Positions 7,045 to 57,089 of a stretch of DNA of 64,000 bases are shown here, piece after piece. Made by a program: the position numbers and the translations under genes. The notes under the pieces are model-generated. The model saw only the letters and a program-made list of their open reading frames with translations, ran no database searches and was not told where the DNA came from. This DNA is from Amoebophrya sp. A120 (lineage: Eukaryota > Protista > Dinoflagellata), in contig CAJINV010000006.1 of NCBI GenBank assembly GCA_905178155.1, positions 1,489,876-1,553,875 of the forward strand, read 5' to 3'. The stretch's first letter is position 1, and each line of letters begins with the position of its first letter.

Positions 7045-10000
7045 ATGGGCAACGCCGGCAGCACAGCCGGCCAGGAGGCGGCCCTGCTGCAGTTTGCAGA
7101 GGCGGTGGGGACGCTGAAAACCGCAGCCGCGAAAGTGGTACAGCAGCAGGCCCGGACGAATTCACCGGACAGCGCGTGTCTGGATCTTTCTCTCGCATCA
7201 CCCGGTAGTTCCTCGCAGCTGAGGCAAGCGGTGGAGGTTTTGGTTGGAAACCATTTGGACCACCTCCCAGTGGGGCAAAATCATCCATCCTCGTCATCGT
7301 CTACTTCTTCTACTTCACCCTCAGGGAATAAACCAACCGGCACGTCGGCCACGTCGTCCTCAACATCCTCCAAAACGATCCCCCGCGCCGCCATCGCACT
7401 GGAAGACCTCGTCGAGATGCTTCCGGCAACCAACGATGAGTGGCTGTTCACGCGGGTGAAAGGTGCGGAAGGTTTTGCACTGCCGCTGGACGGGATAAAG
7501 AAGGGCAAGAACTCGCCGAAAGCAGAAGACGACACAACTACTAGTGGCCGCGCGGAGATCAAAAACTATGGGAACGAGAAGAACGCCCCTACGACAACAC
7601 TGATCCAGCTGTTATTGCAGAAGCTGATTGACGTTCTGGAAGAAGAAGCGTTTGACTCGCCAGTGGATGACATTCTAGCAGGAGTGGAAGACGATACTAG
7701 CCCAAAGGATGATGACACGAGCAGGCTAATCCAGCTGCAAAATTCGCACCTGAAAAAGCTGCACGCGATTAGGATGTTGACGCGATTACTGCCGATTTTC
7801 CTGGGAACAACGACAGAAGTCGCTGGAATATTATCTTCTGAAGATGGGACGAACAATTATGACCAAGGGGCAACATCTTCGTCGTCGTTGTTGTTCCCGG
7901 GTGCTGGTGGTGCAGAAGACGAGGCCAATTTTCTCGCAGACCAGTCCACGGCCCTGCAGTTTTCGTTCAACTTGCTGGAAGCCATCCAACTTATGCTCTT
8001 TGAGAAGAACAGCAGTGGCACATCAACCAGCAAGACAAACTCCAAATCCCGCACCGACCCGGCGCACGTCGACCCGCGGCTGTTGTGGCGGTGCGGGGTC
8101 GGGGTCGCATTGGAGTATGAGATGATGATGCGACAGTCACCTGCTTCTGGAAGTTCTTCGGGCGGATTCAACAACTCAGCTGGTAGTGGTGCAGGAACTA
8201 CAGCTACTGCTATTGGCGGGTCAGAAAATAGATCAACATCGCAGTACAACCAGACGAGCACCAGAACCACAGACCCCTTCTACTCAGAACTACAAGTCCG
8301 CGAAAAGGAGCAAGAGCTGCGGAATGAGCTCCTTCTCCTTCTCCTCGTGGCCCTAAGCGGCGCCTTGTTTAAAACCGCGGGGGAGTTAGCCGGGCGACAG
8401 GAGGAAATAGTATCGGAAGATGAATTGAGCTTGAGCAACGAAAACACAACTCCAGCGCAAATTGCAAATGCAATGCTCTCCGGGACGAGCAGTACATCAA
8501 GAGCTAGGCAGAGAAGCATGAGTAGAGATGAAGGTGAGATCATGGGTGCGAACGATTTGAGCACCTTGAGTGCCGTGGTGGATGAGAAGTTGTGGCTTCA
8601 GGTTTTCGTCACTGGCTACTTTGCGCATATCAAATGCAAAAGTGTCTGGGTCTGGAAGATTGCGAGATTTGTCATGCTTGTCAGGGATGACCAAAAAGCT
8701 TGTGATGCGTGTCCAAGACCAGACCCCTTTGCCTGTCATGCAAAAACGCAGTTTGTCATGCGAAAAACGCAACACACAGAAGCGCAGAGATTTCTCATGC
8801 GTGGCTGTGCATTACAGAGCATTCACTATTCCCAGCACAGCATTACAAGTTTCCAGACCCAGACATATTTGCATTTGATAGCGCACACCGCGAATCTATT
8901 CTTCTCACTGATGAGCACGGTATTTTTTAAACTTGTTGAACAACAACTTCTGATGAGTTGTTTCCAAGTTTGCATTTGGATTCGCTTTCAACATGATGGA
9001 TAAGTTTTTGCATAATATCTGATTTTTGTAGTCTGTTATGCAGTATGCCTAGGATTGCATCCTCCAAATTGAAATTTCCTATCAGGTCTTCTCCCCACCC
9101 CGCTTACCAATCTCCACCAGTCGATTCTCCTTTCTCGGCGGGCTATTCTTCGGCAATAGTACTAAGTCCGCAACCACGTCGGAGCGTATGGAATTCCAGG
9201 AGCAAAATACAGTGGAATTGAGCATCATGCTGCTCTCCATTCTCCTCGATTTCGAAGCCGGTGCTGGTGCGACAACGTCATTATGCATTGCAAATATGTC
9301 TGGGTCTGGAACAAGGATCCAAACTTGTCATGCTGTCTTTGGATTCTAAAAAAGTCTGTATTGCATGACAAACAAGAGGGGCCCAGATTGTGCTACGCGG
9401 AGAGGGCGTTTGTCATGCGGAGTGGGCATCACAAAGCCTTCCAAAAATCTGTGATGCTAAGTCATGCACTACAGGCACGATGGGTCATGCAGAATATGCA
9501 TGACAAACCCGGCAATCTACTTCCAGACCCAGACCTAGTATTTGCATTTGATAGTCATTCCCTTTCAACAACCAGTCCCCCACGTATAACCAACGCCGGT
9601 ACCAGAAGCGGAATTTGGTCCAAGCGAGGGATGAGGCCGCGTTTGAAAGAGAACAAGAACTTTTGCAGTACCGACAGCAAGAACATGCGGATGTTGAACT
9701 GCAGCAACACAAACTGTCGAAGAACATCAGCGACCAGAATCTCTCTGACGGCGGAGGCACGGTGTCTTCCGCGGATCAGCACGTTTCCGTTTCCAGCTCG
9801 GATCATGATCCCATGTCTTCCTCCGGCGGGGGTATAGGCATAGCCGGCGGTGGTCCTGGAGAAGCTCCGGCAATAGGTCACCCTCCAGCCCCCGCAACAA
9901 GCAACCGCTCCAGTCGGAGGTCGAGCAAAAGTAGAACCCAGGACGTCAACTCGACGAGTTCACAGCTAGACCACGGTGATGGCACAGAGCAAGTAGAATC

Positions 10001-12813
10001 CAATGCGTTCCGGTGTTTACTACAAAGCATCGAGAAAGACTCCGAGCTGGATCTGATCCTAGACTATCAACTGCAAATATGTCTGGGTCTGGAAGAATGT
10101 ATGTTTGTCATGCGTGTCTTGCATGACTCTTAAATCTGTCATGTATGTTACCCAAGAGCCCCATTTTTCTGTCATGCAGAAACGCAGTTTGTCATGCAGA
10201 ATAGGCAACGCCTAGAAGCTCAAAGACTTGTCATGCTGGGCCAGCTCTTGTGGCCTCCTCATGATACGCCACCCAGCATCACAAATTTCCAGACCCAGAC
10301 ACTTTTGCACAGGATATAGATGGGTTCCTAAGGCAGATGAACGTGGCGGACGTGATTATTTACGGCTATAACGCGAACACTTACTCGACTGCGACGTCCA
10401 AAGCGCTCCAAAACCGGGAAGAGAGGAAGGATTTGACGGACACAAACTTGATTCTCATCCTTCTCTGGCAGTGCTTACACCACAACCCGTTGTTGTTACA
10501 AAGGCTCGGAACGGCCAACGCCGGAATCCACACCCCCGGGCAGCCGAGTCGGGGGTTGGTGTTTTCGTTGTTTCTGTTGAAGCAACTGGCGAGAATGCAC
10601 GCCCAGAATTTGGACGCGATGCAGGTCGTGCACAATACTAGCAGCAGTTCTAGTACTTCGGAACAACAGCAGAGTAGAGCAGGTGGCGCAGCAGCTGGTG
10701 TAGTTCCTTCCCAACAAACAATGACCTCCAGAACAGCAGAGCTCCACCTTTGCTCGTTTTTGCTTTTGCTTCTATTATGCGTTGCAAAAGTATCGTACTC
10801 GTATAAATGCATGACAAATTTCCTCAGCATGAGAGGGAGAATTTGTAATGGGGATTTACCTTCATAAAATGATTTGTAATGCATGATTCCCATACGACTA
10901 CGAGTACGATACTTTTGCACAGGATATCTATCGGGCGAACGGAACATCGCAGTTTCTCTCAACATATCAAATGTAAAAATGTCTGGGTCTGGAAGAATGC
11001 AACTTGTCATGCTAAATCTGAAGCATGCAAAAATCTGTGTTGCATGATTACCAAAAGTCGTCCAGTTTTGACCAAGTCGGGAGGGAGTTTCTCATGCAGG
11101 ATAGGCATGAGAGAGATTGCGCAGAATCTGTCATGCTAGGTCCTGCATTCCAGGCTTCATGGGTCATGGAAAAGCTGCATGACAAACCGCGTATTCTTCT
11201 AGACCCAGACATTTTTGCATTTGATCAAACACGAGTATCAACACGAACGGAAATAAGTGGTGGGCGGTGGAGGTGTTAAACTCTTTTTCGAAAAACCTAC
11301 ACAGCACAGGTAGTGGCGTCGCCAAAGCGGCCGCGCGGACAGCAACCGCCGGGCCTCGCAGTACCGAAATGGAGCAGGCGATTCAGCAAATCAGCAAACA
11401 CTTACTTGCAGAGTCCAAGCCCGCCACTTTCGCGGATTTTTTCGTGTTGGTCCTGCTGAAATTGATAAGCGACTCGTTGCTGAAGGATGAGCCGTTGGTG
11501 GATTTGCTACTGACAATCCTCTGCAACATCTCGCCTATGCAGTGCAAAACAAGTATCGTACTAGTATAAATCGCATGACAAATTTCCTCAGCAAGCGAAA
11601 TAAAATTTGTGATGCGGATTTAACCTTGAAACAAAAATTTGTAATGCATGACTGCGATTACTACTAGTACGATATTTTTGCAATGCATATCGCCTTACCT
11701 GAAACAACTGGCGGTCACAACGTGTTTGAAGCTCACCTCCTTTTTCGAACGAATCTGCAAAAAGAATTATCTCTTGAAAAACAGCACGAATTACCGGAAT
11801 TTGTTTCTCCTCATCGAGTTTTTCACCAACATTATCCAGTACCAAGCGGAAGGGAATCAGGTTTTGCTCTACTCTCTCGTGCGGGTCAAGAGTGTGTTTG
11901 AGAAATTGGAAGAAATGGAGTTAGATGAGGAGATTGCAGAGCGGGAGGTTGAAAGGATGAGAAATGACAGAGATCAAGGCCAAATTGCAGGGTCTCAACT
12001 ATCCGACTCAACTACCACCAGCAAGCAGTCTTCCAAGGGAAAAAATACAACAACAGCAGCGGCAGCAGCAGCAACAGGAACAGCTACCTCCGGAAAAGAT
12101 AAAGACCCCAATGAACTACAAGTCAACAAGCAAAGATCCCACAGCTCTGACACGACAACGTCGACCAGCAGGTACGAACAACAATTGCTGAACAAAAAAC
12201 TTTGGTTCCATTCCTGGCACGACCAGAAACTGCCACAAGTTCTCAGCACGGTGAAGCACCTGATTTACAAGCTAGAGCCGGAGATTATTGAGCAGTTCTA
12301 CAACACTGCTCGCGAGGTATGCACTGCAAAAGTATCGTACCAGTTCTAGTATGAATTGCATTACAAATTAGCCCAGCATTTTTAACTAAATTTGTAATGC
12401 TGATTTACCTTGAGAAAGCGATTTGTACTAATGCATAAACGCAATGACTACGAGTACGATGCTTTTGCACAGGATACGAGGGCCCCGCTGGCAACTACGC
12501 ATCCGGAGACACCGCGCCGCCGGATATGGACACGATTATTGAGTACATGCGGACCAACACGACCACCGTCGGTTTACTCCCCCAGCCCCACGCGATTGTG
12601 GTGAGGACGTACATACCAAATTTGTACACGACGATCTGGTTCACGCATTTCCTGTACGGCGCGGCATTTGCGAAGATCACGACGGCGTTGGCGCCGTTGT
12701 CCTCGAGCGCGTCCGGGGGAGTGTCTGCGGCGGGGAACGCGGGGGAAAGTTTGAGTCTCGCCGGGCTGTACGACTGTAAGAAGATTAAGCTGGTAAACGT
12801 GGTGATGGCGTGA
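7045..12813 (+). CDS. HID1: HID1-family (HID-1/Ecm30) Golgi/secretory trafficking protein, ~1354 aa
   Basis: Exons 7045-8627, 8886-8919, 9086-9281, 9559-10064, 10322-10775, 10932-10964, 11232-11535, 11695-12317, 12482-12813 (4065 nt). N-terminal MG myristoylation-type start. Reassembled motifs LLLLSGERN, LLTILCNISPYLKQL, FTNIIQYQAEGN and VGLLPQPHAIVVRTY match recalled HID1 motifs. Confidence 0.92.
8628..8880. mobile_element. Introner, family A (TAT..TGCAAA..GTCTGGGTCTGGAA)
   Basis: TIR; DR GCGCA/GCGCA. Confidence 0.92.
8920..9085 (+). other. Canonical GT-AG intron in HID1 (166 nt)
   Basis: GTATTT...TATCAG; removal gives MST|VFSPP in frame. Confidence 0.8.
9282..9553. mobile_element. Introner, family A
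   Basis: TIR; DR GTCAT/GTCAT; frame restored. Confidence 0.92.
10065..10316. mobile_element. Introner, family A
   Basis: TIR; DR TAGAC/TAGAT; LILD|GFLRQ. Confidence 0.92.
10776..10926. mobile_element. Introner, family B (TAT..TGCAAAAGTATCGTAC)
   Basis: TIR; DR TCTAT/TCTAT; restores LLSGERN. Confidence 0.93.
10965..11226. mobile_element. Introner, family A (3' end ATC)
   Basis: TIR; DR CAACA/AAACA; frame restored. Confidence 0.88.
11536..11689. mobile_element. Introner, family B
   Basis: TIR; DR TCGCC/TCGCC; restores NISPYLK. Confidence 0.93.
12318..12476. mobile_element. Introner, family B
   Basis: TIR; DR CGAGG/CGAGG; can be read as GT-AG intron 12317-12480. Confidence 0.92.
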
Positions 12814-13499
12814 TGAAACAGTGCGCGGCGACTTGGATACAGATACTTACGACGGGGAGGCACGTTGTGGTGTAGTGTTTTCTGGTTTGACCACGAGGAC
12901 GGGAAGTCACGTTGTGGCGTTGTCCTGGAAAGATGTTGACCGTAGTTGGAGAGAGTCGACGAAGATACGGCACTACGTGGGTGCCGAAGGCTGTCGTGTG
13001 ATTCTTGCTCTATTGTAGATTGTTCTTGTAAATAATGCTTGTCAACGCAGATGACGGTTTGCTGAGTTCTTGTCCTCATTTTTATTCGCTAAATTCATAG
13101 GTTGTGCACCAAAACGGATATTAGACGTTGAGTTGTGTGGTTAAGCGTTACAAATAAGTGGTAGAAGCAAAAAAAGAGCTCGAGTGGAAGGCAAACTACA
13201 GCCTGAAGTTGTTTAAGTGGACGCTCCGTCTCCGTGCAATATCAAAATCAAATGTTTGATTTGAGCGAGTGCTAGAGCAGAAGTCTCAACACCTCCGAAT
13301 GAATCTGGTGCAAGTACTAGTACAACGAATGATCGAAAGCTGCAGCCTAACACCAGCGCTGCTTGTTGTGCGCAAAGTGTGACAAAGCGAAAAGTAGTGG
13401 CAAGGCTGATGTTCATACCCGTGTTCAAGAACAGAGAAAGAGATGAGCTTGAGGAGGAGGAGGACGAGAGAGAGAGATCTACAAAAAACAGACTCACTT

Positions 13500-15667: not shown

Positions 15668-15903
15668 TATGACAGTGCACAAAGACCCCCCGCCCTCGTC
15701 CTCACTTGCATGTTGGCAAGAACAGCAACACAAGCAACGGCAGCTATGTGGCTTCCGCATGACAAACACGCGCACGGATCATTGTAGTACTATTTGGAAA
15801 TATCATTCCGAAATTTGGCGTGCAGGCACTGCCTCAGGGCAGGATGTGGGCTTGGTGTTTTGCATTAAAAATGAGGGAGAGGGTGGAGCTGTGCACTCTC
15901 ATA
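15668..15903. mobile_element. Introner, family C
   Basis: TIR; DR GGGAA/CGGAA. Confidence 0.87.
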
Positions 15904-15914
15904 CGGAAAACAAG

Positions 15915-18900
15915 ATGAACAGAACGAGGGGCAGAACGACGAAACACGTCGTCAATCCAGCAAGCAAGAAGGGGCTCGGTACTTTTTTGGATGTAGAGCT
16001 GTTTGTCATGCGCAGTTTACTTACAGAATGGAAGTTTGTCATGCATTAATGCCACGACGAACAAGAGATTTCTGAAATTATCAGATGACGAGCAGCTAGA
16101 GGAGCTTCGGGAAGCTTTTAACCTCTTCGACGCCGACCGATCTGGGGTCATTGACGCGAGGGAATTGAAGGCAGCAATACGAGCGCTTGGTATATAATCG
16201 CAGAGGTGCATTGTAGTGTTTTTCTTTTTGTTTATGTTTTACTCCGAAAGCGGGGGTTCCAGGGTCCGGGTTGCCGAACCCGTGCAGAACTTGCGGAGAA
16301 CTCGGCTGCGCGTGTTTCTTGTCTAGAATATTAGAGCCTGCCGGCGGTCTTTGAAATATGATGACGATCCCGATGATGCAGCACTCCGCGAAAGTGAGGC
16401 GGGCATTCGCGTTGAGACTTCCCGTTACGCCTGAGACTCCTAGGCGGCGCGCCATTTTGCGGCGGGGGGCATCTGTGTTTCCGCTCCGCGCGCCCTTCCT
16501 CATCGGTAGTTTCCCGCGCCAAGTCTTGAAGGCAGGCTGCCGGGGCCGTCCGCTTGCGCCTTTGGTTTCCTCGGCATTTTGTTGGCCACATGCGCGCGAT
16601 CTGCGCACTTTTGCAAAGAAGTTGCTGCAGTACCATCGTGTAACGTACGTTACACGATGGCGCTCTGCTTGTTTGCCTTATCGCTTGCCGGCCAGCCTAA
16701 CCAGGGTAGAGAGCCCTGCTTTTAGCCTGTCCATGGCAGCATCGTGAGTAAAGTTAGCCACGGCGGAAGTGCGTTGCTTTGGTTGTTTTCGCAGCTTCGG
16801 GCGCAGTGTGCTACGCCTGGGAGTGAAGGCCGGACGGTGTGGCTAACGACTCCACAGGCGTGCCAGAGGCCCACCAGAGTAGGGTAGCTTCCAGCTGCGC
16901 GGCTCGGTTTGGACGGTTGTAGATGGGGCGCCGCGGTTGCAGCCTGGGGCCCTGTTACCCAAGAAAACCGGCCACGGCTCTCATGCGCCAGAATTTGAGC
17001 CAGAACTTGATCCAGAACTTGCTCCAGAACTTGTTCCAGAACTTGTCTCAGAACTTGTCTCAGAACTTGTCGCAGAACTTGTTCCAGAACTTGCCTCAGA
17101 ACTTGCCAGGAGCTTGATTTTGTGCCCTTTTTTGGCCCACCTTTTTGTCCCGTACCACGACGGCACGGCCGTTTTTTCCCCTTCTTTTTTCCGGCCCCCG
17201 AAAACCGTCTCGGCAAGTTCCTGAACAAGTTCTGAGACAAGTTCTGGGACACACGAGCTCGGCGACAAGTTCTGGACCAAGTTCTGCGCCAAGTTCTGAG
17301 GCTCGCAAGTTCCGGGAAGAGTTGGGGCTCTGGAGCAAGTCCCGCAGCAAGTTCCCGAACAAGCCCCGGGGCAATTCGCGCCGTAACACGTTCCCGCGCT
17401 AGCGCCCCCCCCCAGCAAGCCCTTTGGGAAGTATATTCGGAGCAAGCGAGCCCCACCACGGGGCCCGCGGGCGAGCGTGGTTCGGGCCCTGTTGCTGGGA
17501 GGAGTGCTATGTCGGATCGAGCGCGCCGGCTTTTGCCGCTGCATGCCAGCGGCGTGCTCTTGGGGGCGGCGCGCTGCGGGGGCGCGGCCAGGCAGACAGC
17601 CCCGCAGCGAGCCTTGTCGGCCGGCCACATCTTCGGCGCCCCGGGGTTTTTTTGAATGGATTGTGGGTACAGGGATGCGGTGTTCCGCGCTTTGGCAGTG
17701 GAGCCGGTCTGGGTGTTCGGCGCAGTCTTTTCCCCCCTCGGCAGGCGAGCGGCGTAGGTGGGCCGGGCCCTGGCGCCGAGTGGCCCCCCGGAGTGTTTTC
17801 TTTGTTGTCATTGCCTCGCGGGCCGCTGAAGCGCGTTGCTTTATTCCCCGTTTGCCCAGCAAGCGAAGCCGCGTGCCACCGTGTAACGCGCGTTACACGC
17901 TGGCGCTGGCCTTTCGCCTGAGAAGGCTGGCTAAGCAGGCAGGACGCTCGAAACTCGCTCACTGGCCGCGCGGGGCCCTACTGCTTTGACCCTCCCGGAA
18001 ACGGGCCGAACAAGTTCCGCGCAAGATCTGCGCGAATTCGGGGCACCATACATCTAGACCCATGCTTTATTATGTTTTCGCAAAATTTGTGATGCATGCT
18101 TCTCTAGAGCCTACGATACTTATTGCGGAGTTATTTGTGATGCGATATCAAGATGACTATCCTGCTCTGTATTGCAAAAGAACATTTACAACAAACCCCT
18201 CAGGTTTCGTCGTGAAGAAAGAGCAAGTCCGGCAGATGCTCCGAGACGTTGGCCGCGACGTTAGTACGCATTGCAAATATGTCTGGGGGTGGAAGATTGC
18301 GGCTTGTGATGCTGGCTTTGGATTTAAAACAAAGCCTGTATTGCATGACCAGCAACAGGGATCCAGTTTGTGTTTGTGCTACCCGGACGAGAAGGTATTT
18401 CTCATGCGGGATAAGCATCAAGAGGCCCACCTCGCCTCGTAAAAATATTTGATGCTAGAGCATGCATCAGAGACATCAAGGGTCATCATGCAAAATGTGC
18501 ATGACAAGCGTTTCACATTTCGTCCACACCCAGGCATATTTGCATTTGATAGTTGGTTCCCAGATAACATTCGAGGACTTCGCGAAGATCATGGCGGGGA
18601 AGATGGGCGACAGGAATAGTCGAGAGGAAATTAACAAAATTTTCAAGCTCTTCGACGAGGACGCCAGCGGCAAAATCTCGTTCCGAAATCTAAAACGAAT
18701 CTATCAGAGTGCAGAACTCCCCCTGCCCCTCATTTGTATTGCATGAAAAGCATTACAAGCCCCAGCACAGGTGGACCCTGTGCATGACAAGTTCAGGAGC
18801 CGAGTGTAGTACTGTTTGGATTGTTTTCGGAATTTGTCATGCACGCGGTGCCACAAGGTAGCAACAGGATTTGGGTTTTTGCATGACAAATGAGGGGGAG

Positions 18901-19357
18901 AAGTAGTTGTGCACTGTCATAGAATCGCGCAGGAGATAGGCGAGAGTTTGAACGACGATGAGTTACAGGAGATGATTATCAAGCAAAAAAGTGTTAACGT
19001 TGATGGTTTTCACAAATGGCAGCTACGCATTACAAATTTTGCCTTCATTGCATGCTACGCAATACAAATTTGGACACCCTTTCTGATGCGTTACTGCATC
19101 ACAAATTCCGTTAACGTTAACGCTTTTTCTTGTGATACTGATAGACGAGGCCGACCGGGACGGGGACGGGCTGATCAATCCGGACGAGTTTTACCGTATT
19201 TTTATATTTGGAGTGATGTGAATCTGTGATGCGAGACTGGGTTGCTTGGTTTGATTTGTGATGCGAAAATGGAAATGAAAGCAAAAACACGACCACAGGT
19301 GTAATGCGCAAGCGTGGTGACAATCCACTCGACGACTTTGATACGGATGACGATTAG
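15915..19357 (+). CDS. Centrin (4 EF-hand), 178 aa from ATG 15915; possible 258-aa N-terminal extension from ATG 14900
   Basis: Exons 15915-15978, 16085-16189, 18204-18264, 18557-18701, 18927-18976, 19143-19195, 19299-19357 (537 nt). Reads [39 protein letters not shown]...[73 protein letters not shown]. Confidence 0.95.
15979..16084 (+). other. Canonical GT-AG intron in centrin (106 nt)
   Basis: GTACTT...TATCAG; removal gives KKGLDDEQ. Confidence 0.88.
16270..18045. mobile_element. ~1.8-kb GC-rich insertion with foldback features inside the long centrin intron
   Basis: Imperfect inverted ends (GCAGAACTTGCGGAGAACT versus AGTTCCGCGCAAGATCTGC), internal opposed 12-mer arrays and two related palindromes. 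Boundaries approximate. Confidence 0.55.
16990..17365. repeat. Opposed 12-bp tandem arrays
   Basis: About 10 copies of CAGAACTTGnnn at ~16990-17110 face degenerate CAAGTTCTGnnn copies at ~17213-17365. Confidence 0.85.
18265..18551. mobile_element. Introner, family A
   Basis: TIR (TAC start); DR GTTAG/GTTGG; frame restored. Confidence 0.9.
18702..18921. mobile_element. Introner, family C
   Basis: TIR; DR GAATC/GAATC; restores LKRIAQE. Confidence 0.93.
18977..19137. mobile_element. Introner, family F (TAT..AAAAAAGTGTTA)
   Basis: TIR; DR ATGAT/CTGAT; restores EMIDEAD. Confidence 0.92.
19196..19298 (+). other. Canonical GT-AG intron in centrin (103 nt)
   Basis: GTATTT...CCACAG; removal gives EFYRVMRKR. 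Confidence 0.88.
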
Positions 19358-19376
19358 AGAGGTTGTAGCTGCTCCC

Positions 19377-19524
19377 TACCCTGTGCAAAAGTATCGTATT
19401 CGTATTGCAATCATGCATTACAAATCTGCTTCTTAAGGTCAGTCCGCATTACAAATTTTGTTTCTCATGCTGATGAACTTTGTAATGCATCATTTATACG
19501 AGTACGATACTTTTGCAATGCATA
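19377..19524. mobile_element. Introner, family B, in the presumed centrin 3' UTR
   Basis: TIR; DR CTCCC/CTACC; starts 20 nt after the stop codon. Confidence 0.85.
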
Positions 19525-45500: not shown

Positions 45501-46473
45501 GCAGGGAGCAGTGGTTCATCATGGAGATAATTCAGAAGCGACGCATTTCTTTGTTCCGGTGCCAGCGGAAATGTTGCTAGGAGAAGCTGGTGCAGCTGCG
45601 CAGCAGGGGGAACAGCAAGAGCTGCAAGGTGAAGCTTCTACTTCAAGGCCCGCGACAGCAAGCCAAGTTCTGTTCACTGGATTCGGTCTCTCGCAGACAG
45701 GACAGGCTGCGGCAACGGGTGGGGTTTTTGGAGGTGACAACTCCGAGAACACTCCTGAAGATCATGAAAATGAAATCGCGGGCAACAACAGAAGCGCCGG
45801 CCAAGAGGACCTACACGACGAAAACGACCCGAATAACCTGCCACGGGGACGAACAGGCGGGCCGATCGTGGCTGCCGCTCGGAGTAGAAAGAGCAAGAAA
45901 AACAGACCCTCCAAAACCTTCGCGGACGTGGACGAGCAACGAAGAAATAATGCTTCCGACCGCTCCCGGTCGAGCAAAAGGTCCTCTAGTAGGAAATTAT
46001 CCAGTAGGAGATCCAGTAGAAGGCCAAGTAGGAAATCCACCCCGACCCTTCCAAGTAGGATGTCCGGACGGGAATCGAACCTGGCGAATCGGCCATCCAC
46101 AGTGATTGGGTCGTTTTTCCCTCCGGGAGAAGGGGTTCCGCCCCCGGAGAGGGGGCGAGGTGGAGCAGGGAAGAAGAAAAAGCTTTCCAAACAAGGCTCG
46201 GTTGCAGCGATGGTACTGCGGAAATCTTCTAGAAGTCTGAGTCAAAGGCAAAGTCGTGTGTCTTCCTCGTTGCAAGTGAAGCCGCCTGTTGCAGGAGCCG
46301 AAGATGCGCCTGTTCACCCTCGTCAGCAGAGTCGACCGCAAGAAGAACCTCCGCGAAAAAGTTCTGGCACGAAAAATATTCGCAGCAGTAGTCGGGCAAG
46401 CAGTCGCTCCAGCAGTCGGGCAAGCAGTCGACCAAGCCAACAGCGATTGCGGAAGAAGAAGTCGAAATTGTGA
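39596..46473 (+). CDS. alpha2delta/CACHD1-like VWA-domain type I membrane protein with Thr-rich stalk and long tail, ~1666 aa
   Basis: Exons 39596-41332, 41600-41643, 41911-42431, 42656-43312, 43591-44041, 44202-44425, 44700-44920, 45178-45213, 45364-46473 (5001 nt). DARNSPWY..PKNVVIAIDRSASM (MIDAS DxSxS), LDSLSDNDRFNVFTFN, ILLITDA; Cache-like VVWTRHY..LGVLCVD; TM followed by CCCC. Confidence 0.85.
41333..41594. mobile_element. Introner, family A
   Basis: TIR; DR CGGTG/CGGTG. Confidence 0.93.
41644..41905. mobile_element. Introner, family A, inside the MIDAS motif
   Basis: TIR; DR TCTGC/TCTGC; restores DRSAS. Confidence 0.93.
42432..42650. mobile_element. Introner, family C
   Basis: TIR; DR GCATG/GCATG. 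Confidence 0.92.
43313..43585. mobile_element. Introner, family A
   Basis: TIR; DR GGACT/GGACT. Confidence 0.92.
43807..43985 (+). repeat. Poly-Thr, mucin-like coding repeat
   Basis: Run of ACN codons shortly upstream of the TM segment. Confidence 0.85.
44042..44196. mobile_element. Introner, family B (3' end ATC)
   Basis: TIR; DR AATGA/AACGA. Confidence 0.88.
44426..44694. mobile_element. Introner, family A
   Basis: TIR; DR GCAGT/GCAGT. Confidence 0.92.
44921..45172. mobile_element. Introner, family A
   Basis: TIR; DR TCAAC/TCAAC. Confidence 0.92.
45214..45358. mobile_element. Introner, family B
   Basis: TIR; DR GCGAA/GCGAA. Confidence 0.92.
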
Positions 46474-47779
46474 AGAAGATAGAAGTTTTGATTGACTACA
46501 GTTGCGTCGCGGATAAGACGAAGGCTAATGCTGCCAAGGCTGAAGCGTAACATTATCATCTGCTGTAGAACTTTTCCATGCTTGTGTGTCTCACTCGCAA
46601 GCGTAACAGATATTACACCCATTCCATCTTTATTCAAGCCTTGTAGTTTTGCAGCATTCCAAGTGCGTGCGCGCTTGTGCAAGCGCCTCATGCGATAATG
46701 AATTTTTCGGTTTCAACGGTTTTCAAAAGTACCAAGAGCAATAATCCTATAGAAGATATTTTTGGTTCATCGTATTTGTGCAACCTGCAAATAAAAAACT
46801 CGTTTCATCTAGCAGTTCTATCCACCTCCAACATGATCGACTTTGTTCTACTCCCCATTATACGAGCAGTTCGGGCTGTTCTAGGATGCCCACGTCTACT
46901 CTTGATATGTTCTCCGGTGACATGACCCCCAAATTTTTCCCTGAACAGCCAGATTTTCTCCCTTTGATTTGCAAAACAGCCCAGAAGGCAGCGAGTACCA
47001 AAGTGTCGCTGCTTGTCGTCCTAGCTGCTTCGTAACTGAGCGAGGTTTTGTTCCTTGTTTTGTCCGTCTTCTGAAGAACGTGTCGTCTATTTCGTTGGTG
47101 ATTTTTCAATACCAACAGAGATTAAATCGGTCCAGAAAGTACGTAGCTTTTTCATGGGAACAAGGGCGCGAGGACCTTTCTCTCTCTCCTTGCTGCGCCG
47201 CCGTCGTTGCATTTATCCTTTACCAGGAAGAAGTGCCGTGTCGGTATTTCAATTCGTTCGTACACGCAACATTGTGCATGTCGTTCTGCCCCCCTTGATT
47301 TGCCAATGTCGGTTGTTTGCAGTCTTTGTCGTTGGTTCTCGTCTGCTACTTGGCATTGTCCTCGTCGTTGCTTTCGTACAAAGTATCGTGCAAGAAAAGT
47401 TTTCGTCATTCTTGTTCTTCTCGTTCAAACGTTCGACGGAAAATTTTCGTTTTGTGTGAAATACATTTCGCTATTTCCCTTGTTTTCCATGCAATTCCAG
47501 TGACCTTTATTCCCCTGACATAGTTCGAAGTATTACCCAAAGCTTTGAACTCAAGGTCACGCCATTACTTGGAATTATTTTCGTACACACTTAGAAAGAG
47601 GTGAACAAACTGTAGTACATCATGAACAAGACGCCAAAAAATCTGTTTCTAGAAGGGGACCCCCACGTTAACCACCGCACGAATAACGATAAACCCGATG
47701 AGAAATAAGGCACTTAATATACTCTACGATTTTTAGAAAGTCAGAAGAAGATTTTCCCAATAAACCCCCGCGGAGAAAC

Positions 47780-50700
47780 ATGAGCAGGCGACATCTTTCG
47801 CTTTCTTCAATCGCACTGTTTGTGCTTTATTACCCGGCGCACGTTATTCAGTCCGCCGGCGCCTTCGAGTTTCTCCGCGTGTTAAACACAGAAAAGAACC
47901 AAGCGAAAGGTGGATCACTATCTGGTACAGCGAGGAAGGAGAAGCTTCTGGCGTCGAAGGTAATAGTACAGTCGCAAAAACAGCAAGCAGGGAAACAAGG
48001 AACCAATCCAGGAGCGACAGAGGTCGCTGTGGATTCCTTAAAGGAAGGAGAACAAGTTTTGTCCAGCAGCACAAATGCAGCTGCGGATAACCAGGGAGTT
48101 GTATTGCAAGAACCCAACAACGACGAGGATGTTGAATCCGCCCTCCTGCAGGCGGGAGAACTATCTCAAGAACCTTACGGAATTAGTACAACAACTTCTA
48201 GCAGGATTTCTCTTGCCAGAGGTGCAGCAACGAGACAAGCCGGAGCGGTTTTGCAGCCACAGCCCGCGCTGCTTACGAGTAACAAGAATCGCATCAGTCT
48301 CTCGAAAAATTACACGATGTACGTGGAGGAAGACGAAAAGCTGCTTGATAATGCAGAACTGACGAGTCGAGCCAGCGAAGCATTCGTCGACGAGTTGAGA
48401 ACGTCGGTCATTCAGGAACAAGACAAACAACGGCTTTACAATTCGGAGGTAGAACAACGAGGGAGCAAACGACGATATCATGACTCGTCTGCGAGGACAT
48501 CTGGATCTACTCGACGGGAGTTCAAATCAACCAACGATTTACTGTACCACGATCCAGCCATGGCGATTTATGACGCAATTCTGCCACCAGCTTCAAGCTC
48601 AACCGGAAATGGGGCCCCTACTTCGTCCGAAGACGAACGCCGCGATCATTCCAGGGAAATCGGAGAGGAGGATATCATCGACACAACGACCGAAGTTGGA
48701 GAGGACGAAGAGGACCTAGAAGCCCCAGCAGCTACCCCGACTTCCGCTTTTCTCTTTCTGCAAGAACTTTCGCAAATGAGTACAACGACTACACGTGTAA
48801 AACACCAAAAGCTGTCCACGTCCACCCAAACTAAAGGCCAAGGCACCGCCGATACCTTGTGTTTCGTCTCCCTGATCCTCTGTTTGATCGGCGGCGCCGG
48901 GCTGGTGATTCTCACTTTCGTTTGCTGTCTCTCCGCCCCCGACCCCAGTCAGGAACTTTTGGAAAAACGGCTCGCGGAGGTGAATACGAATTTAGACAAC
49001 GCGGTCAACGCGGAGAGAAAAAGAAAGCAAGACATTCTAAACGCGGCGACAGTTGACGTAACCGAAGAGGGACAACTAGACCGGCTGGAAATGGAGCAGA
49101 AGATGGAGGAAATTAAGATGAAATTGATGGAAAAGGAAAAACTCGCAGTCCTAGCGGGGCATAAAGACGATTTCTCTATCCAGGACGACGAGGAATTCTT
49201 AACGTTACCACCCGAGGAGCTATCAAGTGCAAATATGTCTGGGTGGTCTGGAAGAATGCGCGACTTGCCATGCAGCTTTTCCATGACCCATGAGGTCTGG
49301 AATGTAGGACCTAGCATGACAGATTCTGCGTGATGATCTCTATCACGCCTCCCGTGCATGAGAAACTCCGTCTCGACTTGGGCTAAACTGGACGACTTTT
49401 GGTAATCATGCAACACAGATTTTTGCATGATTCAGATTTAGCATGACAAGTTGCATTCTTCCAGACCCAGACATATTTGCAACGCATAGGAGCAGGAGAA
49501 ACTCAATACCGCGATCAAATTTGCGAAACTGGGGATCAAGGAAGATGTCGACGGGATCTACTCCAATACTTCGGGTAAGAGCTCTCTTGCGGGGGCTTCC
49601 GCCTCGGAACCCGACGATGATAAGTCACACATCACCGGCACGACAACCGAGGAAGATATGACACCAGTAGGTAGTGAGAAGTCGGGAACAACATCAAAGG
49701 AGAGTTCTTTCAACTCCGAAATCTCCGAAGCGGATTACGAACAGTTCGAAATTAATATGCCTTGCAAATATCCCTGGATGTCTGGAAAAATGCAAGCTTG
49801 TGATGCGCATTTCACAACACAAAAAAACCTCTCATGCATAGACAGCAAAAGTTGCCCACTTTCTGTCACCAAAATGGGGCATTAGTCATGGGGATTCGGC
49901 ATTGCGGAAGCTTTTCGAAATCTGTGATGCTAGAGCTTCCATTCTAGACCTTCTGTGTCATGCAAAAGCAGCATGACTCTTCCAGACGGAGACATATTTG
50001 CATTTGATAATCAAGAAGGTGCAGCAGCTGAAAAAAGCGAGTACCAGATCTGGCCTCGGTCTCGGTCTCATTTCCGATACCGATGGTAACATAACCCCCG
50101 CGGAGTTGAGCTCGTTATCCGACGGCGACAAAACCCCGCACGGATCGATCAATATGCAAAGAAAAAAGTGTTACAGTTACGCATTGTGTTGCAAGAGGAG
50201 CAAGACAGACGATTTCTGTCATGCGCAAAATGCTTGCGAGACTCGTTTCGTGTGTGTTTTGCGACGTTAGGATCTCTGCATTACAAGTTTATTTCTCCGT
50301 CATGCGAGGCAAGTTTGTGATGCTGAATTCGCTACAAATGTGTAACTGTAACTCTTTTTTCCTTGGATAATCAAGAAGCACCACCTACTCTCCGCTGCCG
50401 CGAAAAGGAAGATCCGGGCTATGGGAAGATTAGAAGTCGGGTATCAAAAGGAAACATGACCCCTCCCCATATCGAAAACGAAATTTGTGATGCTGATTTG
50501 AGTACACAAATCGACTTGCATTGCTAGAAGGCCAAGCGACGCAGTTTTGGCCTGAATTGCAGGCATATATTGTCATGCTGTTTCCCACTTGTCTAGTTGC
50601 CTCCTGTCATGCTGAAGATGTAAGGCGTTCTCACGCACCCCAGCACTACAGTGTCTACATCTTTTGCCCTCTAGCATGACCAAGCTGATTTGTGGCCCCA

Positions 50701-53700
50701 AATCTGCATCACAGATTTCCGTTTTGACATGGGGAGGGGGGATTTTTCCTTTCGATATCGGGAAATCACGCGCGAAGGAGAGAAGGCAATTGCAGTTGCA
50801 GGCCCGTGGGATGGCCGTTTTCTCCAGTGACGACGATGACCATGAGACGCACTTGCACCACCACGATCATGACCACGACGAAGACGCGGTGAACATCATG
50901 CACATGTCGGTGACGGCGGGAAGCCGGAAAGTTTCCGAAGCGTTGGCCCAGGCGAATTTGAGTATGAGTTCAAACAAAAGCAAAGAGTCCTCCAACGACG
51001 CAACTGCGGGAATTGTAACTGCGAGCGGTGGCACAGGCACTAGAGCCACAGCAAAATCGATGGCAAAGTCTTCGTTCCGAAGCAATGCGTCGAAGAAAAG
51101 TAGTGCCGCGGGAACATCAAATAAGGACGAAATGCACAAAACCAAGAGCAGCGCGTCTTTAGGTAATAGTAGCAACAAGAGCGCCGCGCGAGACGAAATT
51201 CCGCCTGGTGCTGGTTTTGTTGCCTCCGACCAAGAAGTAGAAAGCGACCTGTCCGACCGAGAGGCGAAGGAAGATTTAGCCGATTGGATGGCGAAGGATT
51301 TCCGGGTGGGAAAAGCCTACGCGAAGAGACTCGCGGAGCAAATCTACACAAAAAAAGCGATCAACAACTCGTTTCAACAAAATTCCTCGAAGGCGCATCA
51401 GCCGGTGCCCGGAGTGGTTGGTGGAGACGTCGGTGTCGAGGGTACTACGAGTCTGGGTGTTGCGGTTTCCCAGTCCTTCGTGGTTCCACCTGCGCTGCCT
51501 AGCTCCACGTCGCCCACAAGGCAGTCCGCTGCGCAGAACATTGGAATGTCAGTGAACGCACTAGCAAATCACCGCGCAACACAACAGCAAGAGCATGAAA
51601 ATGCCGAGCACATTGTGATGCCGAAATTGAAAAAAGACACCGAGCACATGAAGGAGCACGGGCTAGATCCGAAGAACTTAACCGTTGGGGAACTCAGGGA
51701 GAAAGTCGCCGAGAAACGAATGAAGGAATTGAATGTACAAACGCGGGAAGACGAGAAAAACAAGCCGGGGTTCTTCAAATCCTTTTTCGGGAAGACTCTG
51801 GATGTGTTTTCCTCAAAGAGGAAAAACAAGCTCGATCCAGAGGGAACAACAGCAAATAAACTCGCCGGGATGAAAAAAGAGAGGAAAAAGAAGAAAAAAC
51901 AGTTTGGAGTCGAACCAGGGAACGCCGATTACACCATCATTTCCATTCCCGAGCAACGGTACGCGGAATCGATTTTGACCGTGACTGGAAAAATCCCGAA
52001 GCTGTACGCGAAGAGGCTGGCGAAACAAGTCGCAGATCCGAACAATGGGAATGAGCAGCTGATCAGTAAGCCGAATTACGTCGTGAAAAACAACAAGAAG
52101 GAGATGAAAACTACTAGTAGTAGTGCCGTGGGTAAAAATAATAAAGATTATCGTCCTTCGCAAATCACGACAACGACAGTCATCAGTAAGAAAACGGGAA
52201 AGGAGCTTACCAAACTGGTTGACCTCAAAGCGAACAAGAAGGCGTACAACTCGATGAAGAAAATTGGGTTTGATTTGGAGAAGGATGGGGACTCTTTAAC
52301 CATCGGGGTTCTGCGCAACTGGATTAACGCGGCCGAAGCGGAGCAAGACGTAAACCACAGTATCGACAATCAGCACGGCACCAGTCCGCTTTCGAGGAAT
52401 AATCACTCGTTTTTGGGGCATTTGTTACGCTCTTCCGCTGCGGCGAAAACCGACGGTTTGGCAAACGTGGAAATCCATATTCACGCGAATTTGTCGAACG
52501 CGTCGACCCTGAAACCGGGCGCGAGTGTGTTGGACAGTTTTAAAAATATGAACACGACGATGAAGCAACAAAGTCCATCTTCTTCGAAGAACATGTTGAA
52601 AGGAGCTGCTTTGCCTTTGAAGGGTCAGAAAACGGCGGAAAATCTGGGCGCAGGAGCACTAGTTTCTGCTCCCGCGGCTCAGGGAGATGCTCTTAACGTA
52701 ACTTCTTACCCGGGAACAATCATCGACCAATCCCCGTTAGCCGACGCCGTGGCCTCCTCTCTGTTCCGCCGCGCGGGGGCAAAATCTGCTGGCGACAAAG
52801 ACCCAAATTCAAACAATTACCGCCCCGCCGGGGCAAGTGAGTTGGAGAAAACCTATGGAGTCTACCAGATGGAAGTCGCTTTAACAACCGCGGGGTTTAC
52901 GAAAGCATCGGCGAAGAAACTGACGGTATGAAATGCAATTATGTCTGGGTCTGGAGAAGTGGAATCTGTATTGCGTGTCTTGCACTCCTGTAAAATCTGT
53001 ATTGCATGACCACCAAAGGCGCGAACTCTTTGTCATGCGAGAACGCAGTTTCTCATGCGCAATACACATGGACATGAGGAAGCGTCCTGAAAATTTGTCA
53101 TGCTTGGCAGCATCCAGGAGTATGCTCAGTCATCGCCACTTAGCATCGTAAGTTTCCAGACCCAGACATATTTGCAATGCATAGACGGAGAAGTTGATCG
53201 ACTCAAGTATTCCCCCAGATACAAATCTGCTCGCAACAGCGGACACGGAAAGCAATAAGATCGAGCGGGTTTCCACGGCGAAGAAGTCGGAGTTTGAGCA
53301 GCTGTTATCGTCCGCGTTTGGGATGATCACCGGGACAGCTTCAGCTGCGGAAGATGAACCAGATAAAGAAAAGCCAGTCGTTGACGAAACGGTCCAACAA
53401 GAAATTCGGAAATCCTCGTTAGCTAGATTGCAGTTCCAAAAATCCGCGATCACGATACAGGACGTGCGGGACAAGCTTTTCACGGAAATAAAACTGAAAA
53501 ACCAGGAAGACACGCTGCTAGCGAACATCCCCGTGGATTACGAAACGGCAGAGATTTCCTTAGTCTCCGCTGGGTTCGAGCGGTCAATCGCACGGAGGTT
53601 AGCGGTGCAGGTGGCGGACCCAACGGTTTACGCGGAGGAATTGTTGTTCACACACGAGAAAAAGGAAGTACAAGTAGTAGGAGAGCAGCAAAACGTACCA

Positions 53701-56700
53701 GTTGTTCCAGATGTTGAAGGTGTAGTAGTATCACCACCGCCACCGCCAAAACTCGAACAACCATCTTCCTCGTCCCCCGCAGCCGATCTCCTTGCCGCGC
53801 ACATTACCGATGGGAAGAGGATTCTCCAGAAGATGGGGCTCGGCTTGGAAAACGAAACCGTCGGCAGGTTGCGGAAGTACTTGAACCAGTTGATAGAAGA
53901 GAAGAAAGTGGAGAAAGCGGCGGAAGACGTTTTGCGAATGCAGCAAGAGAAAAACGCCGTGGCCATGGGAATTCTGCCGGCGACAGCGGTGTCACAGCAA
54001 CAGCTGCAGCACCCACCGCCTGAAGTGACTGGGACTACTACACCCGCAGGAACGGCTGAGACGCAACCGCTCATCGGAGTGGGAACATCAACTACTGCCG
54101 CCACGACCCCGGGAACAGCAGCAGCTGCCACGGCATCAGCAACTACTTTTGGTAGCCCGCACCAGCCCATCACTGGTAAGGAAGCGTACCGGGCGCTTGT
54201 AGCAACCGGATTCAGCAAAAAAGGCGCTACCATGCTCGCGAAAACCTTGTTACGGAAAGCCGGGCTGGATTTACAACCCGATGAGTTCGAACTCGCTTTG
54301 CGGGATGGGCTGAAGCAGAAGGCGAAGGAAATGAAAGAACTACGGAAGTTGAACACGAAACAGATGGGGCTTGGGTTCTCGTCTGGGGGAAGTAGTAGTA
54401 CGACAAATATGAGCTTGGGGGCGACGAATAGTTCTTCCTTCAAGAATGCAATGCTGGGACGAACATCAGACGGGGGCCCTGACACTGCAGGAGCTACTCT
54501 CGCTGGTACAGGAGCGCCTGCTACCGAAGGAGCAGATGTCCCCACGACCACCGAAACAGCAGCAGCAACCCCACAACAAGCCGCCGGCGAGGGATCAGCA
54601 CAACAGCGATTTTCGGAAGCGTCCATTCATAGCATTTCTAGCACGGAATCGGTGGAACGGCAAACAAGGCAGACGCAGAGCAAGTTTGGGGTCCATATCA
54701 AATGTAAAACTGTCTGGGTCTGGAAACTTGTGATGCTGGGTGGCGTCTCATGATGAGGCCACAAGTGCAGGCTCAGCATGACAAGTTTGTGACGAGCTTC
54801 TAGGTGTTGCCTATTCTGCATGGCAAACTGCGTTTCTGCATCACACAAAAATGGGGCTCTTGGGTAACGTGCATGACAGATTTAAGAGTCATGCCAGACA
54901 AGCATGACAAACATGCATTCTTCCAGACCCAGACACTTTTGCCTTTGATAGTCCAAAGGAAGACGCCGGATAGTGCATCTTTGTCCCGCAAGAAGCTGCA
55001 GCTATCCGGAATCTCGGAGCAGGGAAGTACTGCACCAGCGCATGCTATGGATGTGTCAGGATCGAAATCGACGAAATCGAAATGATTTGTGATGCATATA
55101 TAAAATGCAGGGCACGGAAGGCCTGTATTGGGGAGCAGGCAAATGAGACCGATTGCAAGCCTGTTTAGGGGTATGCAATGTGCTGCCAGAGTAGCACGAC
55201 AGGAGGAGTCTTCTTTGCCCAAACAGCATGACAGACTGGATTTGGGTGCTCCCGAAATTCGTCATGCGCCACCCCGCAGCAGCACAGTCTGTTTATGTCA
55301 TGCGCCACTTGGAAACTGAGGCTCCAACTGACATCGATTTTGTGCATCGCAAATTTTTCGATTTTGCCGATTTCGATTCTGACACTTCCATACATGCTCC
55401 TTTTGCGCCCGAGGGTGAAGCTTTAGAGCAGGAGGGTAACGGAGGTCCACTTTTGCTAGAACAGTCGGGCGAGCAAATTATAACTGCAGATGCGGAAGGC
55501 GAGCAGGTGGTGAATAACGCACTATCTCAACAAGATCCTTCTCTCGTTTCCTTCGGAGACCCAAATGAAGCTGGGGCTGGTGCAAGAACTGCAAACACGA
55601 ATCAAATGAACGCCTCCAAAATCATCATTTCTGCGACCACTGGCACCGCCGTGCAGCAAACCAACCCGGACGAGGAAGTTTACACCGAGGAGGACTTTCA
55701 GCGGGACCTCGCGCTGTTAAAAGCGTTTCAGGGGTACGGAAACGCGCAAACATCAGAGGCAATCAGCTTGGACGCGATTGTTCGGAGGAAGCAAACGGAG
55801 CAGAAGGTGGAGATTAACTTGTACAAGTTGCGAAAGCAGAAATTGTTTCAAATTGATTCCACGAGTTCTGGGATGAAGAAGAACAAAAAGTCCTCCTACA
55901 CGTTCGCGCAAGCCCGGGCGGAGAAGAAATTGATCGAGACCTTAGGGCTTACCCCGGAATTCGCGGCCTGGGTGGTCAAGGAAGTGGCACTTTATACAAA
56001 CTTGGAGAAAGAAACGACCACGACGGCGAAGGAAAATGTTGCAGACGCAGCAAGTACTACAACTCCTGCTGTAGGTGGCGCTGCACCTGATGCTGATTCT
56101 GGCTCGTCCCCTCCAGGTACAGCAGCAGCCGCAGAAGTTCTTTCAACAAGGCAAGGGTCAAAAGAACAACAACCTAAAGGTGGTTCTTCACACGGAAAAA
56201 GCGCACGTCACCACGCCGCCTTTATGGTGTCCCACGAACAGACAGGGTCAGGCAATGTTGCAGCCACAACAAGTACAACTTCTGCAATAGGAGCGGCTGC
56301 AACTGGAGGTGCTGCTGATGGCACTAGCAATACAAATCCTAGTACCGCTACTTCAGACGACGATGACGATGACATCGGCTATTCCGATAGCGAGGAAGAC
56401 GATAAACAGGAAAACAAATTCGTCGAGTTCGACATCCACATTCTCAATGAACACGCTTCCTGCACGCACAAGGACCACGAGAAACTGGAGGATATTTACG
56501 ACCATTGTGTTCCCCTCGGACACGAAATTCACACGTGGGACGAATTTCAAAGTCTCTTAGAAACGGCGATCGCGAAGGAAGAAGCGATATGAACTGCAAA
56601 AATGTCTGCGTCTGGAAAGTTGTAATGCTTGGCTGGGAACAGTGAATTCTCTGTAATGCACAGCCTTGCATGAGAAAGGTCTGCGCTGCTTTGTGTTGCG

Positions 56701-57089
56701 CTTTCTGCATGACAAGCTGCGTTTTTGCATGACAGGCAAGATGAGGCCCCTTTCCTGCTTATGCATCACAGATTTAAGAGTAATGCCAGACAAGCATGAC
56801 AAACGTGCCTTCTTCCAGACCCAGACATATTTGCATTCTATAAGCGAGAAAGGCCGTGGAAGCGGAAGCGGTCGCGACTTTTACGAGCTCGATGTATGGA
56901 AGATCGTTTGAAACCATTGCGAAAAACCAGGAGAGGCAAAAGATTCGGAAAGAACGGGAAACGAGGAAAAATAAACCGGACTGCTGCTACAGTTGCTTGT
57001 TTTGTCTGTGTTGCTTTCGGAGGAACAGGAAAGAGGAAACTATTGGTCCTAAAACGCTGGGAAGGAGGTCGAAGAAGAAGGTCGAGTAG
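47780..57089 (+). CDS. Large unknown single-pass membrane protein (~2366 aa) with signal peptide, one TM segment and repeated helical modules
   Basis: Exons 47780-49220, 49494-49755, 50015-50152, 50375-50441, 50763-52926, 53189-54695, 54956-55045, 55398-56587, 56848-57089 (7101 nt, one continuous frame after 8 excisions). Hydrophobic N-terminus, TM LCFVSLILCLIGGAGLVILTFVCC, C-terminal Cys cluster. Confidence 0.78.
49221..49488. mobile_element. Introner, family A
   Basis: TIR; DR GGAGC/GGAGC. Confidence 0.92.
49756..50009. mobile_element. Introner, family A
   Basis: TIR; DR ATTAA/ATCAA. Confidence 0.88.
50153..50369. mobile_element. Introner, family F
   Basis: GTTACAGTTAC / GTAACTGTAAC TIR core; DR ATCAA/ATCAA. 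Confidence 0.9.
50442..50757. mobile_element. Introner, family D
   Basis: TIR; DR TCGGG/TCGGG. Confidence 0.9.
52927..53183. mobile_element. Introner, family A
   Basis: TIR; DR GACGG/GACGG. Confidence 0.92.
54696..54950. mobile_element. Introner, family A (reverse orientation of the 10065/44921 subfamily)
   Basis: TIR; DR GTCCA/GTCCA. Confidence 0.92.
55046..55392. mobile_element. Introner, family E (TATGGA..GTCAGG..GAAATCG)
   Basis: TIR; DR CATGC/CATGC. Confidence 0.9.
56588..56842. mobile_element. Introner, family A (reverse orientation of 8628)
   Basis: TIR; DR AGCGA/AGCGA. Confidence 0.92.

Follow-up and report, generated by a model that had tools for sequence, protein, structure and literature searches.

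The window analysed here is a 64,000-nucleotide (nt) stretch of contig CAJINV010000006.1 (positions 1,489,876 to 1,553,875, forward strand, of assembly GCA_905178155.1). An exon search returned one protein only, P0001 (CAD7953524.1), which is 100% identical and identifies the host as Amoebophrya sp. A120. The window holds a Hid1/dymeclin-like gene, a centrin gene, small membrane-protein-like genes and two paralogs with a VWA domain, together with 56 elements that share the same ends and make up 13,016 of the 64,000 bases. We followed up a prediction, made from the sequence alone, that the same subfamilies of these elements lie in both orientations within + strand genes, restore the reading frame in either orientation, and spread as DNA transposons while serving as introns both ways round.

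The elements are repeated and fall into families, both in the window and in loci of a second assembly described below. In the window, forward and reversed copies number 15 and 8 in family A (about 260 bp), 10 and 5 in family B (about 150 bp), 2 and 3 in family C (about 220 bp), and one each in family F. With sizes of 109-457 bp, no coding capacity, terminal inverted repeats (TIRs) and a duplication of fixed length, they have the features of miniature inverted-repeat transposable elements (MITEs). End matrices contain the terminal inverted repeat TAT-N7-AAA, although the search pattern itself had fixed position 2 and some of the TAT. A 5-bp direct repeat flanks the elements, exact in 37 of 53 window copies and extended to 6 bp in none. 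All ten copies named in the original prediction were found at their coordinates, with TAT..ATA-type ends and the 5-bp repeat. A search of the window against Rfam gave no match, nor did the TIR pattern of the elements match any viral contig.

The available text of Farhat et al. (2021, PMC7789003) describes A120 introners of about 240 nt that make up 17% of the genome, form a hairpin and lack common splice dinucleotides; their inverted repeats open with TAT, after which come seven variable positions and three or more A, their direct repeats measure 3-5 nt, and they are treated as introns supported by RNA sequencing (RNA-seq). Because the ends of the window elements fit this description, the elements belong to that described set. 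They are listed below with three host genes; signs after the element coordinates give orientation relative to the family reference, and "missing" means missing from P0001.

Host genes
6988..12810, + strand, Hid1/dymeclin-like gene; 7 elements, none reversed; likely GT-AG intron near 8915-9085
15910..19358 (approximate limits), + strand, centrin gene; 3 elements in coding sequence, 3 likely GT-AG introns
27104..28339, + strand, small membrane-protein-like gene; all three elements reversed

Family A
8628..8880, +, reference orientation; exact 5-bp duplication; Hid1/dymeclin-like gene
9282..9553, +
10065..10316, +, subfamily with 44921 and 54696
10965..11226, +, subfamily with 27449, 35371, 44426 and 49221
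18265..18551, +, centrin gene
23544..23807, +, Tsr3-like gene
27449..27710, -, reversed, coding
27747..28011, -, reversed, coding
35371..35635, -, reversed, coding
41333..41594, +
41644..41905, +
43313..43585, +
44426..44694, -, reversed, coding
44921..45172, +
49221..49488, -, reversed, missing
49756..50009, +, missing
52927..53183, +, missing
54696..54950, -, reversed, missing
56588..56842, -, reversed, missing
60578..60835, +
61579..61839, +
62297..62562, +
63002..63271, -, reversed, coding

Family B
2900..3052, -, reversed, family B-related (about 150 bp)
10776..10926, +, reference orientation
11536..11689, +, Hid1 profile runs on across the element (position 496 to 498)
12318..12476, +
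19377..19524, -, reversed, 3' of centrin stop codon
21187..21339, +
23888..24037, +, downstream duplication copy would give an in-frame stop
28079..28238, -, reversed, coding
36052..36204, +
44042..44196, +
45214..45358, -, reversed, ORF shared with 44042
59422..59571, +
59969..60118, +
61333..61483, -, reversed, ORF shared with 59422, 59969 and 63579
63579..63725, +

Family C
3544..3770, +, reference orientation
15668..15903, -, immediately 5' of the likely centrin start codon
18702..18921, -, reversed, centrin coding sequence
42432..42650, -, reversed
62003..62221, +

Family D
32753..33079, +
50442..50757, +, missing

Family E
33143..33351, +
50153..50369, +, missing

Family F
55046..55392, +, missing
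60196..60509, -, reversed relative to 55046

Other elements, no orientation assigned
18977..19137, same ends, single in window; centrin
21390..21680, same ends, single in window
33450..33762, same ends, single in window
36259..36619, same ends, single in window
37192..37461, degenerate
37525..37685, degenerate
62648..62932, same ends; removal joins the VWA frame

Element interiors match as reverse complements

Self-comparison of the window recovered all of the named element pairs. We trimmed 32 nt from each element end and compared the interiors by reverse-complement and by forward alignment. Element 54696, proposed to be the reverse complement of the 10065/44921 subfamily, gave identities of 0.90 (with 10065) and 0.88 (with 44921) in reverse and of 0.47 and 0.49 forward; 56588, named as the reverse of 8628, gave 0.79 and 0.47; and 10965 gave 0.82, 0.79, 0.77 and 0.88 in reverse with 27449, 35371, 44426 and 49221, respectively, versus 0.47-0.52 forward. 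Shuffled controls had a mean of 0.46-0.48 and a maximum of 0.52, which places the forward identities at shuffle level. The pairwise alignment called for in the prediction thus yields, with the terminal repeats trimmed, 77-90% reverse-complement identity for all seven named opposite pairs, so that the similarity is not confined to the TIRs. Orientation labels produced no conflicts over 86 and 92 edges of the family graphs. All host frames lie on the + strand, and both orientations are present within one subfamily and within one open reading frame (ORF).

Removal of the element plus 5 nt restores the protein in either orientation

Removing an element together with 5 nt restores the protein whatever the orientation. 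At 47702..57086 (+), eight elements, three of them reversed, were cut with 5 nt each to give a 2392-codon ORF that, read from its first Met, is P0001 over 2366 of 2366 residues; the match spans the reversed copies 49221, 54696 and 56588 and the forward family A copies 49756 and 52927. A120 gene models were derived from transcript and protein alignments. A VWA-domain ORF at 39587..46470 (+) reaches 1669 codons once its eight elements of both orientations are removed, and its paralog at 58496..64000 (+) runs for 993 stop-free codons once 11 elements, again of both orientations, are removed. These paralogs are 35% identical over 223 aa, and within the aligned part their elements are differently placed. 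Claims that the elements are frame-restoring therefore hold for removal of the element plus 5 nt; they do not hold for the elements themselves, which are not multiples of three and mostly carry stops. The length plus 5 leaves a remainder of 0, 1 or 2 on division by three in 19, 13 and 21 of 53 window elements, respectively.

Taking 4 or 3 additional nt breaks the 1669-, 2392- and 993-codon ORFs. In a crude longest-ORF test, removal with 5 nt beat removal with 4 or 3 nt for 25 of 25 forward copies and 9 of 13 reversed copies of families A and B, and for 14 of 18 other copies. The four reversed exceptions (27449, 27747, 28079 and 56588) lie near protein ends: 56588 is settled by identity to P0001, and across 27449, 27747 and 28079 a paralog match crosses all three junctions only when 5 nt are removed at each (108 bits, versus 51-86 for six alternatives). 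A general rule of 4 or 3 nt was rejected on ORF breakage in the window, on the longest-ORF test and on the second assembly. Centrin aligns without gaps to its A25 ortholog (90.6% over 106 aa) across three elements, including the reversed 18702. Frames also stay open for hundreds of codons beyond reversed copies that have diverged by 5-20% from their relatives. Two copies fall outside coding sequence: 19377 follows the centrin stop codon, and 15668 sits immediately upstream of the likely start codon of that gene. The proposal that these elements are introns in both orientations is thus backed by the exact match to a transcript-based A120 protein and by continuity with paralogs and orthologs.

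On 44001-64000, RNA runs X8 and X9 contributed 47 and 2 partial reads, respectively, all of them on elements; run X1 showed no exon cover, and joints from run X5 were swamped by other element copies.

Three tandem paralogous genes for cysteine-rich, membrane-protein-like products (27104-28339, 32438-33835 and 35155-about 38000) carry their own elements at different positions; the one exon of these genes that was scanned had no Pfam match. Repeated and inverted blocks unrelated to the elements occupy 28568-30919, among them an array at 30543-30919 whose period is about 85-90 bp, and a likely GT-AG centrin intron of about 2 kb (16192-18202) contains G+C-rich tandem and inverted repeat arrays near 16980-17370.

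Orientation changes repeatedly among related copies

A pattern scan identified 160 loci with the same families, up to 98% identical, in one other assembly, which possibly represents the same organism and is not established as a second species. The larger sample consisted of the 78 long loci among these, with 217 unique elements. Our element detector recovers 48 of 54 window elements (it misses families C and F and one single) and makes one call in the shuffled window; because it misses some elements, some loci keep unexcised neighbours. Gene strand in these loci was inferred from ORFs and codon use: 87 of the 217 elements passed an 80-codon filter and 79 of the 87 a codon-strand filter, and these were pooled with 53 window copies to give 132. 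Exact 5-bp duplications flank 176 of the 217, and at least 100 open codons on both sides were found for 77 of the 217 upon removal with 5 nt, versus 15 with 4 nt and 19 with 3 nt. No empty orthologous sites were available among the fetched loci of the second assembly, none of which matched unique sequence of the window; the A25 centrin was compared as protein.

Insertion is independent of gene strand, with a mild skew in family A: pooled coding copies of family B are oriented 15 forward to 16 reversed relative to the gene (family A is taken up below). A tree of the 61 coding family A copies contains 15 label changes, 14 of them forced by well-supported branches; shuffled labels gave a mean of 17.5, and 50-58 of 500 shuffles were as low as observed. 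Among family A pairs at least 88% identical, 11 of 34 are opposite, one of them at 95%. Nearest-neighbour identities of 0.829 and 0.828 for the two orientations make forward and reversed copies look equally old. Family B, for which the tree is weak, shows no orientation clustering (11 changes versus 10.5-10.7 when shuffled). At least 14 forced flips imply that orientation is redrawn at most insertions, which is the behaviour of DNA transposons and not of reverse splicing. Together with the TIRs and the 5-bp duplications, these flips support the prediction that the elements spread as DNA transposons.

Element ends are symmetric and mostly lack splice dinucleotides

On the gene strand, the elements carry the same motif at both ends: the base matrix of the 5' end is almost that of the complemented 3' end. 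For most copies G[TCA]..AG cannot be read wherever the cut is placed: of 132 copies, 16 allow it at any of the six equivalent cuts on the gene strand and 9 on the opposite strand (GT..AG: 9 and 6), and in the window alone 8 of 53 do. Predicted end pairing is 0.70 on the gene strand versus 0.71 on the opposite one, and 0.68 for forward versus 0.66 for reversed copies. No position of the duplication has a fixed base.

Three elements in conserved genes bear on where the cut falls. At 23888, the downstream repeat copy puts a stop ahead of a Pfam-matched domain, which favours the upstream copy. The Met encoded by the upstream copy at 18977 occurs in 10 of the 11 homologs shown (of 26 aligned), and the Gly encoded by the downstream copy at 18265 in none of the 11 shown (of 26 aligned). 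As all three favour the upstream copy, the 5' cut likely lies at, or at most one base from, the first T of the element. Single mismatches between the repeat copies are silent in 18 of 26 cases, versus 10.7-13.2 expected with a free intronic copy (p = 0.004-0.04); the non-silent 15668 proved non-coding (18 of 25), and 37192, non-silent and read by eye, restores 18 of 26. This excess, from a small sample in which CpG changes weigh in, hints that both repeat copies can reach mRNA. CpG transitions account for 9 of the 26 single mismatches in window and loci, and may reflect decay through CpG methylation. The published dinucleotide table was rejected as a means of placing the cut, since its GT-xx and xx-AG entries probably represent aligner choices inside the 5-bp repeat beside the TA ends.

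In 26, 39 and 67 of 132 copies the 5-bp duplication begins at codon position 1, 2 or 3, respectively (p = 5e-5), a bias for which local sequence preference accounts only in part (phase beyond sequence, p about 0.02). It would amount to a phase-0 excess if the cut lay 1 or 4 bases into the repeat.

An internal motif occurs on both strands

The motif TGTVATGC or its complement is present in 130 of the 132 elements and on both strands in 95, with 162 matches in 12.6 kb of elements versus 3 in 29 kb of coding sequence. Its gene-strand excess within elements (60 versus 42 elements, p = 0.09) and its strand difference outside them (25 versus 14, p = 0.11) leave a strand-specific internal signal unsupported at p < 0.05. 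A gene-strand copy is missing from 17 of 131 elements and an other-strand copy from 21. Matches at 16004, 16037, 18088, 18136, 19225 and 19257 form two per likely GT-AG centrin intron; each reads along the gene strand and lies no more than about 120 nt from the intron 3' end. They are a candidate splicing signal or the trace of a decayed element.

Mechanism and competing explanations

We consider it likely that the A120 elements are non-autonomous TIR transposons, that they are cut from RNA together with one copy of the duplication, and that the symmetric ends suffice for this. A transposase supplied in trans would insert them by 5-bp staggered cuts with little regard to strand. As the ends are inverted repeats, the transcript starts with TAT-N7-AAA and ends with its complement in either orientation, and folding is predicted to give one and the same terminal stem either way round. 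That stem would bring the two direct repeats together, and cutting and joining would leave one copy. A modified spliceosome is slightly more likely as the catalyst than another enzyme, given that nearly all spliceosomal proteins are present in A120; the U1 small nuclear RNA (snRNA) was not detected, according to the available text of Farhat et al. (2021, PMC7789003). A more specific version, which we put forward tentatively and regard as rather doubtful, is that A120 splicing uses neither a fixed dinucleotide nor a strand-specific signal: it would read the symmetric TAT-N7-AAA stem and join inside the 5-nt repeat at a sliding cut, with either copy reaching the mRNA.

Several observations weigh against transposition followed by orientation-blind removal from RNA. 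Neither the window nor the 78 loci yielded an element of transposase size with the shared ends, the longest pairs spanning 631 and 834 bp, and the available text of Farhat et al. (2021, PMC7789003) reports no transposase in A120. Removal at the RNA level rests on the deposited gene model, homology and published RNA-seq; an exon search through 2076 candidates turned up no deposited protein of either VWA gene and none close to them, and a further exon search gave two weak, unrelated-looking hits. The equal pairing on both strands follows by construction from the inverted repeats and is no proof that the stem is used. Finally, 40 pooled coding copies of family A point forward with respect to the gene while 21 are reversed (p = 0.02), and some of its clades, noticed post hoc, lean one way (13:2, 8:2 and 3:9), so that orientation may not be fully neutral. 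The longer elements themselves (L029:632-1465, 834 bp, and L062:3862-4492, 631 bp) have family A ends and exact 5-bp duplications, and are possibly nested insertions.

The skew would be explained if, with the same transposon origin, splicing required an internal strand-specific signal, with TGTVATGC as the candidate, that is mostly present on both strands, one orientation being spliced better and favoured. The 40:21 ratio, the motif's presence in 130 of 132 elements (both strands in 95) and its 162 matches versus 3 in coding sequence speak for such a signal, as do the six gene-strand matches in three likely GT-AG centrin introns. Subterminal repeats on both strands are also how a transposase-binding array is expected to look, the strand excess is weak inside and outside the elements, and 17 of 131 elements lack a gene-strand motif; we judge this explanation unlikely. 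A very unlikely alternative is that excision takes place in the DNA of the expressing stage and not in RNA, in the manner of the TA-bounded eliminated sequences of ciliates, in which case orientation would be irrelevant. The TA termini, the lack of splice dinucleotides and the precise loss of the element with one repeat are all as it would have them. Yet in a run of even depth (about 30) over unique sequence, which may sample another stage, contigs pass from exons into elements without differences; of about 2095 joints 15 were inspected, and no precise skip was among them; and the publication, in its available text, treats the elements as RNA-seq-supported introns (PMC7789003).

Spread by reverse splicing via RNA, with a few rare inversions founding the reversed subfamilies, has been proposed, as to the reverse splicing, for Micromonas, where elements are sense-only in the available text (PMC3879977). 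Nearest neighbours in family A do share orientation more often than expected (42 of 61 versus 33.5), but the forced flips (at least 14 among 61 copies), the opposite pairs (11 of 34 at 88% identity or more, including the one at 95%), the unclustered family B with its weak tree and the 5-bp duplications around nearly all copies make it highly improbable, and as a mode of spread it is largely refuted. We give least credence to the view that reversed copies are gene-breaking insertions whose restored frames reflect the state before insertion. Direct junction reads are lacking, and all four family A and B failures in the crude ORF test are reversed copies; against this, homology settles all four, P0001 lacks three reversed copies exactly, and frames remain open for hundreds of codons beyond reversed copies already diverged by 5-20%.

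Relation to known introners

The system is a known one, and the two-way property is already known from other introners. Compared with the A120 introners of Farhat et al. (PMC7789003, available text), the elements share the organism, the end motif, the direct repeats and the lack of common splice dinucleotides; they differ in that the duplication is fixed here at 5 bp, with removal of the element plus 5, where 3-5 nt repeats were given. No statement on element orientation in Amoebophrya was found in the literature searched, which included the available text of Farhat et al. and extended neither to figures nor to subscription papers and some datasets. In that paper, the four uses of the word "orientation" that could be placed refer to genes; its supplement has three others. 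Introners in either orientation are described for Aureococcus anophagefferens and for Polarella glacialis classes 6, 8, 10, 2, 7, 3 and 1 (Roy et al., 10.1101/2020.10.14.339549, available text). Like those of A120, they are TIR DNA transposons with target duplications that form introns both ways, biased to one orientation. In the Polarella classes the element end or the duplication supplies GT/GC/GA donors, and the acceptors too, and the choice of target site is limited accordingly; in A120, no G[TCA]..AG option exists at any cut for 116 of 132 copies, so that the two systems share both orientations and differ in their splice sites.

Euglena non-conventional introns (Nomura et al. 2025, PMC12501133, available text) resemble the A120 elements in lacking GT-AG, in paired ends, which are required there for removal, and in a 3' end several bases past the paired motif; a MITE-like origin has been suggested for them. 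They belong to an unrelated lineage, and their signature is N3CDG..CH'GN5-6, followed by an exon that begins with a purine, whereas A120 has TAT..ATA ends and a 5-bp direct repeat; the word "orientation" is absent from the available Euglena text. Micromonas introner elements (PMC3879977, available text) are likewise repeated introns at unique gene positions, but occur in sense orientation only, attributed to reverse splicing, unlike those of A120. The pipeline of a 2022 introner survey accepted opposite-orientation matches; pipelines requiring same-orientation similarity would split these families.

Duplications of 5 bp are typical of integrases of the Copia/Gypsy kind. A120 family 38, a TIR-flanked integrase-like element with Copia/Gypsy homology (Gozashti et al. 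2025, PMC12130899, available text), is a candidate mobiliser on the strength of this duplication length.

What the present results add is a constraint: exact removal in both orientations without splice dinucleotides. Because one subfamily is removed exactly both ways, the signal needed must lie in symmetric parts, that is, in the ends, the direct repeat or internal motifs present both ways round. Amoebophrya has tens of thousands of introns that lack GT-AG, and their removal, to all appearance with no U1 snRNA, is an unsolved problem (PMC7789003, available text), for which natural opposite pairs at 88-95% identity offer ready-made controls of splicing efficiency. If a sliding cut inside the repeat does operate, any insertion, in either orientation, in any phase and at almost any target, would be a perfect intron; the mobiliser may, judging by the 5-bp duplication, be of the integrase type.

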